Positions 19,393 to 27,545 of a stretch of DNA of 27,545 nt are shown here, piece by piece. The position numbers and the translations under genes are program-made. The DNA lies in IMG/VR virus record IMGVR_UViG_3300033050_000026, positions 1 through 27,545 of that record, one strand, 5' to 3'. The DNA is from a virus. Lineage: Duplodnaviria; Caudoviricetes. The number at the start of each line of letters is the position of its first letter. The stretch's first letter is position 1. The notes below the pieces were generated by a model. It ran no database searches. It was not told where the DNA came from and saw only the letters and a program-made list of their open reading frames with translations.

Positions 19393-19653
19393 TTAGTTCG
19401 TCGAAGCAACCAAGGTAGCTGCGCCACCAGCACTAAGAGCGCTAATGTGCATGCTGTGAGACAAGTTTAATACACTGTCATAAACCTGCACAAAATCACC
19501 GACACGAAGACCAAGGTCAACTGCATCAGTAACATAGTCCGCCGCCAAAATGTCGGCAATCGCATCAGGACTGTTGTAACCCCACAAGGATGATGCAATA
19601 CCCCCAACACGATCAATCAAAAGTGTAGGGGGATTAGTGATTAAATAAGCCAT
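19393..19653 (-). CDS. Small putative capsid-associated/decoration protein
   Basis: SD TAGGAG; lies between the capsid gene and the terminator, so it is probably highly expressed. Confidence 0.65.
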   Translation of the reverse strand: MAYLITNPPTLLIDRVGGIASSLWGYNSPDAIADILAADYVTDAVDLGLRVGDFVQVYDSVLNLSHSMHISALSAGGAATLVASTN

Positions 19654-19662
19654 ATCAAACTC

Positions 19663-20511
19663 CTATGCTAAAGTATCGTGAGTGAATGGAATAACACCTT
19701 CGTCTTGCAAAAGCTTAGACCCCATAATCATTGAGCAACGAGCATAGGTATAACCTTGCTCTTCATCGTATCCAACAACATTTTCCATCCCGCTAACATT
19801 AGCCGCATGACCCATGGAACTTTTATGATACAAATATGATTGCTCGCTGTCTGTCCCCTGGCCAGGAAGACCTGGATGCTCAATAATTGTAGCGTTGCGC
19901 CATTTATAAACCGTCGGCATGTCACGCCAAGACATATCTTCACCCGCATAAGGCTGATGCTTAACGAAGTCAGCGCTTGCGAAAGCCCTGCTAGAATCCT
20001 GCTCTAATGCTGCCAAAAAACTAGGTTGACACAACATCGAGATGTATCCATCCCAAGGAACACTTTCATTAGTCAATCTAACGCGCCCCCGCTGAAACAT
20101 CGCCACACTCGCAACCTGACCTGCCCCACCAACTCCACCTGTCGCCGTACCAAGCTGAGCAATAATTAACTCATCAATTTTTCGGTTGATAACCGCAAGC
20201 GTATCTTCTTGCATGATCTGCTTTTGATTGCCTTGAGATGCAAATATATTAAAACCTGTCAGCGTGACAAGATCATTCCACTCCTCTAAAATTGCGGTGT
20301 TTTGCTCATTATCGTTGCCGCGCGGCTGAATCCTGCCAGTTATTCCACGCTTAGTAGCCGCAGCATTGCCAGACCCAGCAACTAAAAAGACGGCCTGATT
20401 GCCTTTGATTACCGCCTCTGTAGTAACAGTGCCAAGAAGAAGTGACTTGCGTTGCTCAAATTGAGCAATCCACTCATCACGATATTGTGTTTGAAAAGCT
20501 GAAAGAGCCAT
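19663..20511 (-). CDS. Major capsid protein
   Basis: FQTQYRDEW..FEQRKSLL..TV..AVINRKIDELII..GSKLLQDEGV; follows the scaffold; own promoter candidate and downstream terminator. Confidence 0.85.
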   Translation of the reverse strand: MALSAFQTQYRDEWIAQFEQRKSLLLGTVTTEAVIKGNQAVFLVAGSGNAAATKRGITGRIQPRGNDNEQNTAILEEWNDLVTLTGFNIFASQGNQKQIMQEDTLAVINRKIDELIIAQLGTATGGVGGAGQVASVAMFQRGRVRLTNESVPWDGYISMLCQPSFLAALEQDSSRAFASADFVKHQPYAGEDMSWRDMPTVYKWRNATIIEHPGLPGQGTDSEQSYLYHKSSMGHAANVSGMENVVGYDEEQGYTYARCSMIMGSKLLQDEGVIPFTHDTLA

Positions 20512-20620
20512 AAGTACGGTCTCCTATCTAATTAAAAGAAAATCTCTTAGACGGGGTAGCCGTTTGCAGTTAAGCAGGGTAGCCATAAGGGGCTGCATTG
20601 CCGGTCGCGGGGCCGTACTC
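20512..20620 (-). promoter_or_regulatory. Structured 5' leader of the capsid mRNA (candidate cis-regulatory RNA)
   Basis: Two nested stem-CCCC...GGCUACC-stem modules, plus AGUACGG/CCGUACU complementarity reaching the start codon. Confidence 0.6.
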
Positions 20621-20644
20621 TGACAAATATAATTGCCTGTTTCT

Positions 20645-20673
20645 ATTGTTTCACTATATCCAATAGCTGTCAA
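20645..20673 (-). promoter_or_regulatory. Sigma70-type promoter for the capsid gene
   Basis: TTGACA-17 nt-AACAAT with TG at the extended -10 position, immediately after the scaffold stop. Confidence 0.55.
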
Positions 20674-21570
20674 CTATAGCTCTCTGCTTTTAGCCGATAT
20701 AAGCTTAAGATATTTAGCCTGATTATCCGCTGCTTTCGGGCCTTTATAGTATTCAGAGTTTTTATTCCCCATTAAAGCCTTAAGATCATTGATCTGAGCA
20801 TCAATTGATCCGGACATATCAGTCGTGCCAGAAGGCACTAATCTTGCCGCTGGATTGATATCAATCGACATCTGAGCCATAAGACGAGCAAACCCTGCAT
20901 TCTCCTTAACAGAGTTTAAAATCGACTCCTTCAGGTCTGCCTGATCTTCGCCAAGCCTGGAATTTAGATCATTATTGATGGCTGTCAGATTACCCCGATA
21001 ATCAACCCCCCACTCAGTACGAAGCTCGTCCTCAGTATCTTGTATGCTTTGTAATTGAGAATTTCTAGCCTCTTCTGCAACCGCCAGATCATGCCCTTCG
21101 TGCCACTTGATTGCCTGGTCAACCTGCGCTTGAGTGTAATTGTTTTCATGAGCAACCTTAAGAAAATCATCAATCCTTGCTTGCTCTGGCTCACCAATAA
21201 CAACACCTTCCTTCGTGTTTACCTTATAATCAGCCGAAGATTCTGGCAATCCGGCTTCCTTTCGCCACGTAGCTTTTTCTTCATCCGAACCTTTATCAGG
21301 GAAAAGCTCAGTTAGCTCTCCCGATCTGATCTTCTGCTGCGCTTGATAACCAGCATTAAGCATTGATTTTTGATCTGTATAACGCTTTGCATAAGTTAGC
21401 TTCTTGTCATCACCGTCCGCATAATCCTCGCGCCAATTAGAAATAACCTCATCAGAAACAACCTCATCAGCCTTTACATCAGGCTCTACATCCGAACCTT
21501 TGTTTATCTCTTTATCATCTTTAATAATCCCATAACCACCCTCAGATGGAGCCTCTTCTTCATATCTCAT
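20674..21570 (-). CDS. Capsid scaffolding/assembly protein
   Basis: Acidic and helical; GLPESSADY, ELRTEWG.DY, C-terminal NSEYYKG; lies between portal and capsid. Confidence 0.8.
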   Translation of the reverse strand: MRYEEEAPSEGGYGIIKDDKEINKGSDVEPDVKADEVVSDEVISNWREDYADGDDKKLTYAKRYTDQKSMLNAGYQAQQKIRSGELTELFPDKGSDEEKATWRKEAGLPESSADYKVNTKEGVVIGEPEQARIDDFLKVAHENNYTQAQVDQAIKWHEGHDLAVAEEARNSQLQSIQDTEDELRTEWGVDYRGNLTAINNDLNSRLGEDQADLKESILNSVKENAGFARLMAQMSIDINPAARLVPSGTTDMSGSIDAQINDLKALMGNKNSEYYKGPKAADNQAKYLKLISAKSREL

Positions 21571-26940: not shown

Positions 26941-27309
26941 ATGAACAAACCACAAATAGTATCAATCGACGGCGTTGACTATGTTCGCGCAGACAAAAAC
27001 CCGGTAGCCCAGGAAGTTGATGGCATGAAATATTGCGTTGTTCGAACATATTCGGCGGGGGTACACATAGGGTACGTAGCTGAGTTTGGAGTTAAGCACC
27101 CGCAGCACGCGAAGCTCATAAACTCTCGTAGACTTCACCGCTGGAATGGGGCCGCCAGCCTTTCTCAAGTCGCTATGGATGGCGTTGATGCCAGCTCTCG
27201 AATAGCTATGACTGTTCCTGAGCTGGATCTAACAGACGTTATTGAAGTTATCACCTGCTCAGAAAAGTCTGCCGAGTTTTTTAAGGGGGTGAAAGCGTGG
27301 AAAAATTAA
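26941..27309 (+). CDS. DUF6948-like phage protein, copy 2
   Basis: Paralogue of 1937..2305, same length. Confidence 0.8.
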   Translation: MNKPQIVSIDGVDYVRADKNPVAQEVDGMKYCVVRTYSAGVHIGYVAEFGVKHPQHAKLINSRRLHRWNGAASLSQVAMDGVDASSRIAMTVPELDLTDVIEVITCSEKSAEFFKGVKAWKN

Positions 27310-27545
27310 TCCTATTTAGCATGAGAGATACTAAGACTGATGGCTTTGGTTCGGGCTCTCGCGATGGTTGCGGCTTTTGCTGTGGCGCTGGCCCTGGTGA
27401 TGGTTATGGTGATGGCCAGGGCGCGGGTTATGGTGCTGGCCAGGGCTCGGGCGCGGGTTATGGTGCTGGCGATGGCCAGGGCTCTGGCCCTGACCCTGAC
27501 CCTGACTCAGGCGAGGACTCGGGCTATGGCGATGGCGATGGTCAT
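27297..27545 (+). CDS. Gly-rich (Gx)n protein, copy 2 (3' truncated by window edge; not in the ORF track)
   Basis: GTG start with AAGGGGG upstream; MEKLILFSMRDTKTDGFGSGSRDGCGFCCGAGPGDGYGDGQGAGYGAG..., open to the end of the window. Confidence 0.7.
   Translation, partial: MEKLILFSMRDTKTDGFGSGSRDGCGFCCGAGPGDGYGDGQGAGYGAGQGSGAGYGAGDGQGSGPDPDPDSGEDSGYGDGDGH

Follow-up and report, generated by a model that had tools for sequence, protein, structure and literature searches.

The leader of the major capsid gene in this phage carries an RNA element that is widespread ahead of phage capsid genes and has no Rfam family, and in the clade of this phage comparison of relatives gives good support for a two-state switch with a putative ligand. 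The DNA analyzed, referred to below as the window, is a linear viral record of 27.5 kb (27,545 nucleotides). The element in it is almost certainly a real RNA element: an asymmetric internal loop, CC opposite CUACC, appears twice, one copy nested inside the other on a long rod-like hairpin, and a rival hairpin engages the ribosome binding site (RBS). That these two folds constitute a functional switch in the clade is, in our judgment, likely. The whole model, i.e., a translational switch that is off by default and is opened by a loop-binding protein, probably unassembled scaffold, is given a somewhat better than even chance.

On the minus strand of the window the genes are arranged in the order terminase, portal, an 82-aa protein, a 298-aa protein, the 282-aa major capsid protein, an 86-aa protein, and tail-tube genes. 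The element sits in the 162-nt gap separating the 298-aa gene from the capsid gene (Table 1). The capsid family phrog_3437 includes both the window capsid and the major head protein of HTVC010P; pairwise alignment of these two proteins gave nothing significant (E 0.06). The position of the 298-aa gene, together with an Atlas lead to PF05396, suggests that its product is the scaffold. The TTGACA promoter candidate that the sequence-only reading had placed upstream of the leader was recovered by our scan, and a start at this site would yield a leader of approximately 127 nt. The same scan found 10 sites in the window, compared with 4.8 in shuffles, and promoter-like sequence is present in 17 of 86 relatives (4.7 when shuffled, 8 on the reverse strand). 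An intrinsic terminator preceding the Shine-Dalgarno sequence (SD) was also considered and rejected; none was called at the window site, and the U-tract is, by eye, absent in many relatives.

Elsewhere in the window, the plus strand carries several repeated features. Near each of the two record ends (1937-2550 and 26941-27545) there is a 122-aa gene with a Gly/Ser-rich repeat ORF behind it, and the two 122-aa proteins are ~85% identical by eye, which identifies them as paralogs rather than as a terminal repeat. Tandem paralogous genes (840-1217 and 1548-1940), 720 nt apart, share a 40-nt stretch that is 93% identical. Moreover, positions 2-106 hold five pentapeptide-like repeats (DLSGV/DLRGV) at 15-nt spacing, in an ORF that is cut by the record end.

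Table 1. Coordinates of the capsid leader element, its alternative pairing partners, and the neighboring genes in the window.
Feature	Position	Strand	Remarks
Scaffold-like protein, 298 aa, candidate ligand	20674..21570	-	phrog_3742, common to HTVC010P gp07
Sigma70-like promoter candidate, TTGACA-17-AACAAT	20645..20673	-	directly 3′ of the stop of the scaffold-like gene; 10/12 match, TG present
5′ arm AGUACGG, basal stem of the rod	20613..20619	-	in the window also pairs with 20519-20513
Outer module, short strand GG-CC-CC (GGCCCC)	20609..20614	-	loop CC 20612-20611
Inner module, short strand GCAG-CC-CC	20589..20596	-	AGCCCC 20594-20589; loop CC 20592-20591
Inner module, long strand GG-CUACC-CUGC	20574..20584	-	GGCUACCCU 20584-20576; loop 20582-20578; fits both folds
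Outer module, long strand AC-GG-CUACC-CCGU (putative switching strand)	20551..20563	-	GGCUACCCC 20561-20553; loop 20559-20555
Hairpin GUCUAA...UUAGAU, core of the conserved 3′ off-hairpin	20526..20552	-	ends one base before the SD
SD AGGAG, spacer ACCGUACUU, and capsid AUG	20509..20525	-	SD 20525-20521, AUG 20511-20509
Major capsid protein, 282 aa (putative regulated gene)	19663..20511	-	PF19821, phrog_3437
86-aa protein 3′ of the capsid gene, second candidate ligand	19393..19653	-	phrog_18004, without a named family

The leader text and coordinates reported by the sequence-only reading were all confirmed on the minus strand, as was the nested twin module that it described. The twin CC/CUACC module spans 20614-20553, and its outer long strand has two alternative sets of partners, either 20616-20609 or the SD together with the spacer. 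The pattern CCCC-N(3-30)-GGCTACCC has two occurrences in the window, both in the capsid leader, where 0.05 are expected, and a count of two was reached in 1 of 100 shuffles. With Rfam 15 no match was obtained in the window at the gathering threshold, and when 20 related loci were searched with E up to 1, three matches were obtained, none of them within a capsid leader; the sequence-only reading, too, could not assign the element to a named family. Folding of the leader, which had been put forward as a check, gave a divided answer: the overall stability of the region is not unusual (z -1.04) and, under the Turner model, the full-length leader is not predicted to adopt the twin-loop rod (pair probabilities <0.01), whereas the alternative helix formed by the 5′ arm, discussed below, is strongly predicted. 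Since folding alone does not return the twin-loop rod, its support comes from comparison with relatives.

Relatives were collected by capsid alignment, which yielded 198 loci, and the resulting set comprised 202 loci, 192 of them with a start codon. Keeping distinct loci with sufficient upstream sequence left 137; the requirement for an SD reduced these to 133, and a limit of <85% identity to 121. Pairs were counted in 93 parsed relatives with a capsid identity of at least 52%. Removing four atypically spaced leaders (L057, L064, L102, and L202) from these left a set of 89, and ensemble tests were done on 83 relatives in which all eight module pairs are canonical. Alignment A2 holds 93 of 99 close leaders, six having been removed by hand (L046, L057, L064, L084, L134, and L202).

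The nested order short-short-long-long was recovered in 108 of the 121 nonredundant leaders by weight matrices that use no pairing information. The basal pair of the inner module is paired in 91 of 93 relatives (G-C in 62, A-U in 28), compared with a mean of 72 and a maximum of 80 in shuffles; the next pairs of this module reach 86 and 75 of 93 (61 and 47 when shuffled), and the apical pair of the outer module reaches 80 of 93 (56 when shuffled). Loop positions and slid registers paired no more often than shuffles in the same 93 relatives. On A2, 87.8% of the cells of the rod are paired and 16 of 19 pairs show change on both sides, and 0 of 500 shuffles was as high; the rod structure was here drawn from the same sequences and the slid control is biased. 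Two further checks are less subject to this bias. Unguided RNAalifold returned the inner module and nothing else. When the changes at the inner basal pair were placed on a capsid tree, 20 of 21 were located on shared branches; the fractions for five control column pairs were 0.15-0.48. These results bear out the proposal that the same asymmetric loop forms twice along one long hairpin, with stems that covary and loop positions that stay unpaired, and they supply the covariation among relatives that had been named as its check.

They also bear on the possibility that the repeats act at the level of DNA, as operator or late-promoter elements that mimic RNA structure. Consistent with such a role, GGCTACCC is an exact direct repeat adjoining the promoter candidate. 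Nevertheless, this explanation is highly improbable given that the compensatory changes sit on shared branches, that permuted copies of the module are closed by GNRA loops, and that GAAA and GCAA are the most common apical loops; the counts of G-U versus A-C (35 versus 20) are weakly informative in this context.

In the consensus of the module, RG-CN-CC on the short strand faces GG-HYAMC-CY on the long strand. The rod is lengthened by a basal helix, ACC...GC with GC-GA(C/A)-GGU (88% paired on A2). Within this helix an internal loop (A2 columns 18-42 and 142-153) often has AGUA opposite GAC/GAA, which we take to resemble the bulged-G (loop E) motif. A third, circularly permuted copy of the module lies upstream in 24 of 86 relatives, compared with 2.8 when shuffled, and is absent from the window; this third copy suggests that the loop is a repeated binding site. 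In six alphaproteobacterial prophages (L195-L199 and L201), the inner module is circularly permuted within the outer one, an arrangement showing that the loop is probably functional in either orientation. In seven other relatives (L048, L052, L073, L120, L141, L157, and L174), the N terminus of the capsid protein is 32 to 62 residues longer and an intact leader precedes the new start.

The loop invites comparison with the C-loop, an RNA 3D motif present in rRNA and in a viroid loop bound by Virp1. In passages of two sources, it is defined as an asymmetric internal loop that lies inside a hairpin; its longer strand usually starts with C, and two crossing non-Watson-Crick pairs form two triads (10.1101/2021.12.02.470923, PMC2952876). 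The capsid-leader module is likewise an asymmetric internal loop within a hairpin, with flanking stems that covary and an unpaired loop, its long strand is of the YAM type, and the C-loop is a protein-binding module. The module differs in being a 2x5 loop (1x4 or a 4-nt bulge in relatives) and in that the first base of its long strand is more often A than C: in the inner copy the first loop base is A in 55 and C in 23 of 93 relatives and the second is C in 66 of 93, so that agreement with the C-loop on this point would depend on whether the first base forms a noncanonical pair.

The second fold is built on the same outer strand. Together with its 5′ flank, which frequently reads RUGAYGG or GCCAUGAUGG, the outer long strand pairs with the SD, the spacer, and the AUG, and the segment 3′ of the outer loop pairs with the segment preceding the SD, better with its own partner than with those of other phages in 77 of 89 relatives. 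For the pairing of the outer strand with the RBS, the observed mean of own versus cross was reached in 0 of 5000 permutations; the inner strand, as a control, gave 847 of 5000, and three other control segment pairs gave 69, 99, and 317 of 5000, which indicates some background. Compared with shuffles that preserve composition, the 3′ hairpin has the greater stability in 78 of 83 relatives (z < -1.64 in 63), and with shuffling restricted to the 5′ flank and spacer this is the case in 71 of 83 (z < -1.64 in 43). By columns, the off-helix is 63% paired (0 of 500 shuffles), its pairs with two-sided change were matched by 193 of 500 shuffles, and no single pair in a fixed register beat all shuffles; this column-wise support is weaker, which would be expected of a helix with a shifting register. 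In the free ensemble the partner of the RBS is the outer strand, and not the 5′ arm, in 78 of 83 relatives, and when the rod is imposed as a constraint the RBS becomes more accessible in 73 of 83. Comparison of the leaders shows, for this clade, a rival hairpin that is predicted to bury the RBS. In outline this agrees with the earlier claim of two mutually exclusive folds, one of which buries the RBS, with the outer strand providing the route used in the family. In the window itself, the 3′ hairpin joins ACGG (20563-20560) to CCGU (20519-20516) and GUCUAA to UUAGAU, and its stability is not above that of shuffles (z -0.73).

The sequence-only reading had assigned the burial of the RBS to the 5′ arm, a claim that the predicted folds favor for this phage and that comparison does not support for the family. 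In the window, the AGUACGG/CCGUACU helix is the dominant predicted fold (pair probability 0.96-0.98), and pairing of the 5′ arm together with 20625-20620 extends it over the AUG. The part of the helix beyond ACGG was equaled by 58 of 5000 shuffles, and in the same test 3 of 89 relatives reach p 0.05. Across the 89 relatives, pairing of the arm with its own spacer does not exceed that with the spacer of another phage (p 0.34), the longest Watson-Crick run is at most 4 bp, compared with 7 in the window, and the paired fraction of the helix was equaled by 37 of 500 shuffles. On these results the 5′ arm was rejected as a family-wide off-switch. No relative with a capsid identity between 64% and 97% was found, and the one at 97% has an identical leader. 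Since the extension beyond ACGG is unlikely to arise by chance, the 5′ arm helix may be a lineage-specific substitute off-fold, and the silencing role appears to have been taken over by the arm in this phage.

In the window, the rod, the family off-fold, and the 5′ arm fold have constrained ensemble energies of -31.0, -33.0, and -35.9 kcal/mol, respectively. Among the 83 relatives, the outer module has a probability >0.5 in 26 transcripts that end before the SD-proximal segment and in none of the full leaders, and the rod lies within 2 kcal/mol of the ensemble in 44 truncated and 3 full transcripts. Retaining the inner module in the full leader costs a median of 0.6 kcal/mol. The mean penalty for the rod is 8.8 kcal/mol, a value that is probably too large since the Turner model from which it derives ignores the noncanonical pairs of the 2x5 loops. 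The RNA at rest may therefore not be off.

We propose that the rod could form first during transcription and that the RNA would then relax to the off-hairpin. The inner loop would survive in both folds and could serve as a first docking site, while binding at the outer loop would stabilize the rod and leave the RBS open. The routes through the 5′ arm and through the 3′ hairpin would both disrupt the outer loop and keep the inner one intact; in this phage, with a family off-hairpin that is predicted to be weak, the 5′ arm likely supplies the off-fold. With the rod formed first and the off-hairpin as the predicted end state, any ligand bound at the outer loop would expose the RBS and hence activate translation. 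The ligand would be a phage head protein, most simply unassembled scaffold, which is our best guess, and capsid synthesis would then track the pool of free scaffold.

The difference between truncated and full transcripts (44 versus 3 of 83) would also be expected from a ligand-free kinetic timer, in which an early rod permits a burst of initiation before the off-hairpin forms and the loops only tune the refolding barrier. We regard such a timer as unlikely. The unpaired loop bases are kept in the inner copy (A in 86 and the last C in 92 of 93), which lies outside the off-helix, they are also conserved in the upstream permuted copy, which is not part of the off-helix, and the loop persists where the off-helix is weak.

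A reversed direction of control is likewise improbable. Here, the element would be an operator at which capsid or scaffold lowers translation, or else a nuclease site or 5′ stabilizer, with the off-hairpin being secondary. In a second phage family, a bulged variant of the module has such a repressor-like geometry, as it adjoins the SD of the gene in the scaffold position, and the off-hairpin is weak in most distant lineages. In this clade, however, the outer long strand begins 42 to 60 nt upstream of the AUG, and formation of the rod frees the RBS in 73 of the 83 relatives, which argues for activation.

Known leaders provide a context for the activation model. SD-sequestering riboswitches, ribosomal-protein leaders, and the coat operators of RNA phages are all two-fold or protein-responsive leaders, and protein-bound leaders mostly repress. 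The capsid-leader element resembles the SD-sequestering ON switches in having exclusive folds, one of which buries both the SD and the AUG, with the ligand site (putative here) upstream, and in this clade the two folds are separately conserved. It differs from them in having no Rfam match and in its putative sensor, a small loop that is present in two to three copies and in either orientation.

Wyckoff and Casjens reportedly described, in 1985, translational autoregulation of the phage P22 scaffolding protein (gene 8). That the P22 scaffolding protein is autoregulated after transcription is also stated in a passage of a more recent source (10.1101/2022.12.13.520362). The likeness to P22 lies in a head-assembly gene under post-transcriptional control, plausibly by unassembled scaffold. 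The difference is that P22 controls the gene of the scaffold itself, by repression, whereas here the element precedes the capsid gene, carries repeated loops, and is predicted to activate; in addition, the 13-nt gap before P22 gene 8 contains no such module by eye. At the scaffold gene starts of this clade, where a P22-type site would lie, there is no excess of the module (16 of 59, compared with 85 of 311 background windows), so the loop is linked to scaffold by position only; elsewhere, a variant does precede a scaffold-position gene.

The distribution of the module was assessed by scanning IMG/VR with RNA-only patterns, with the first 80 of at least 120 matches analyzed per scan. For two patterns containing an SD, 31 of 52 and 50 of 58 of the ORFs linked to the SD were major-head genes, among the matches listed and with duplicates included. 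A 17-nt permuted module with a GNRA loop, searched without an SD, was found in 70 distinct contexts among the matches listed; 60 contexts have a downstream ORF, and 52 of these 60 ORFs are capsids. Among the matches listed, the capsids belong mostly to PF19821/phrog_3437 and in some cases to phrog_267, phrog_1328, or PF20911. These data show that the module is linked to capsid genes. An exact single-module scan without an SD was set aside, the 119 loci listed being, by eye, mostly chance matches in GC-rich DNA that lack a flanking stem; two of the matches listed (L232 and L268) were confirmed as capsid leaders. A loose structural descriptor proved insufficiently selective for scanning genomes, with 46 matches on one strand of the window and 88 on the other.

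Model R1 finds leaders at the capsid start of divergent relatives, and its match in the window (20509-20631) is to a member of the training set. It had no match in BPP-1 or P22, in which there are only 13-nt gaps, before the capsid gene in BPP-1 and before the scaffold gene in P22, and it missed HTVC010P, Hodr, and P-SSP7, the leaders of which have another layout. Distant capsid leaders carry a 1x4 loop. In P-SSP7, the predicted fold of the gene 10 leader (L567:2680-2720, ~130 nt upstream) has a 1x4 loop with C opposite AUAC. In HTVC010P, the region before the major head gene (L563:3255-3360) has, by eye, a candidate permuted module with ACAA opposite C and a GCAA loop as well as a degenerate second copy, and its minimum free energy (MFE) fold is without the module. 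Among 40 leaders of the distant 1x4-loop lineages, the off-hairpin is strong in 8 of the 30 that could be tested, which suggests that the loop is older and wider than the switch layout.

A further variant occurs in a different phage family (L339, L340, L368, L486, and L514). It has twin 4-nt bulges (ACAA), with the outer copy permuted, and lies ~80 nt before a start near position 1500, where it follows a terminator-like hairpin and directly adjoins the SD of the gene in the scaffold position. Its MFE folds contain both bulges in four of the five leaders and the inner bulge in all five, and the gene that follows the scaffold-position gene matches phrog_9953 (L339, L368, and L486). Module-like text also precedes head-maturation protease genes in two loci (L506 and L359), which may be chance or a further use. 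Taken together, the loop may constitute a portable code, shared by HTVC010P-like phages, T7-like cyanophages such as P-SSP7, and the phrog_9953 group, by which unassembled scaffold would activate capsid translation and would repress where the loop abuts its own SD; this extension is tentative and we consider it rather doubtful.

The presence of the module across capsid families and in phages of different hosts could also point to a host ligand, which would couple capsid output to the state of the host. Such a ligand might be CsrA/RsmA, a small molecule, or a ribosomal or different RNA-binding protein with affinity for motifs resembling the C-loop, and C-loops are indeed described as protein-binding sites in a passage of one source (PMC2952876). 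We hold a host ligand to be quite unlikely, as the matches listed fall almost exclusively before head genes. The sequence AYGGAY, found in many long strands, recalls the CsrA/RsmA site, which is a single-stranded GGA in a hairpin loop. A CsrA/RsmA site was nevertheless rejected: of 90 leaders, 56 have GGA in the outer strand, 46 have it in the inner strand, and 26 have it in neither copy, the window reads GGC twice, and the GG is paired with compensatory changes. Unassembled scaffold remains the preferred candidate.

Structured RNAs ahead of major capsid genes have been listed before. Fremin et al. 2023 (PMC10690425) report candidate phage RNAs upstream of these genes, five of them before PHA00201 and others before HK97, N4, Podo, and P22 coat genes in the rows compared. 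The likeness is that these, too, are uncharacterized structured RNAs ahead of major capsid genes; the difference is that the listed rows do not include PF19821 and the passage describes neither a switch nor a ligand. It is possible that the present element is listed there as an unnamed candidate, above all in its T7-like 1x4 variant, the comparison being by listed rows. Within these bounds, a search of the literature gave no description of a twin-loop capsid-leader element.

The matching of capsid and scaffold output in tailed phages is, to our knowledge, known mainly from P22 genetics of the 1980s. The element described here supplies a defined RNA, the exact bases to mutate, and a predicted direction of control, which is activation, and the 1x4 version in the predicted fold of the P-SSP7 capsid leader offers a cultured model system for tests. 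A modular translational switch that is activated by a protein would also be a useful synthetic part. Among the members of the capsid family in which the element is found is a group of marine phages that ranks with the most abundant, according to a passage in PMC8477408. If the model is true, a structural protein in these phages would set the stoichiometry of the head by reading an mRNA.
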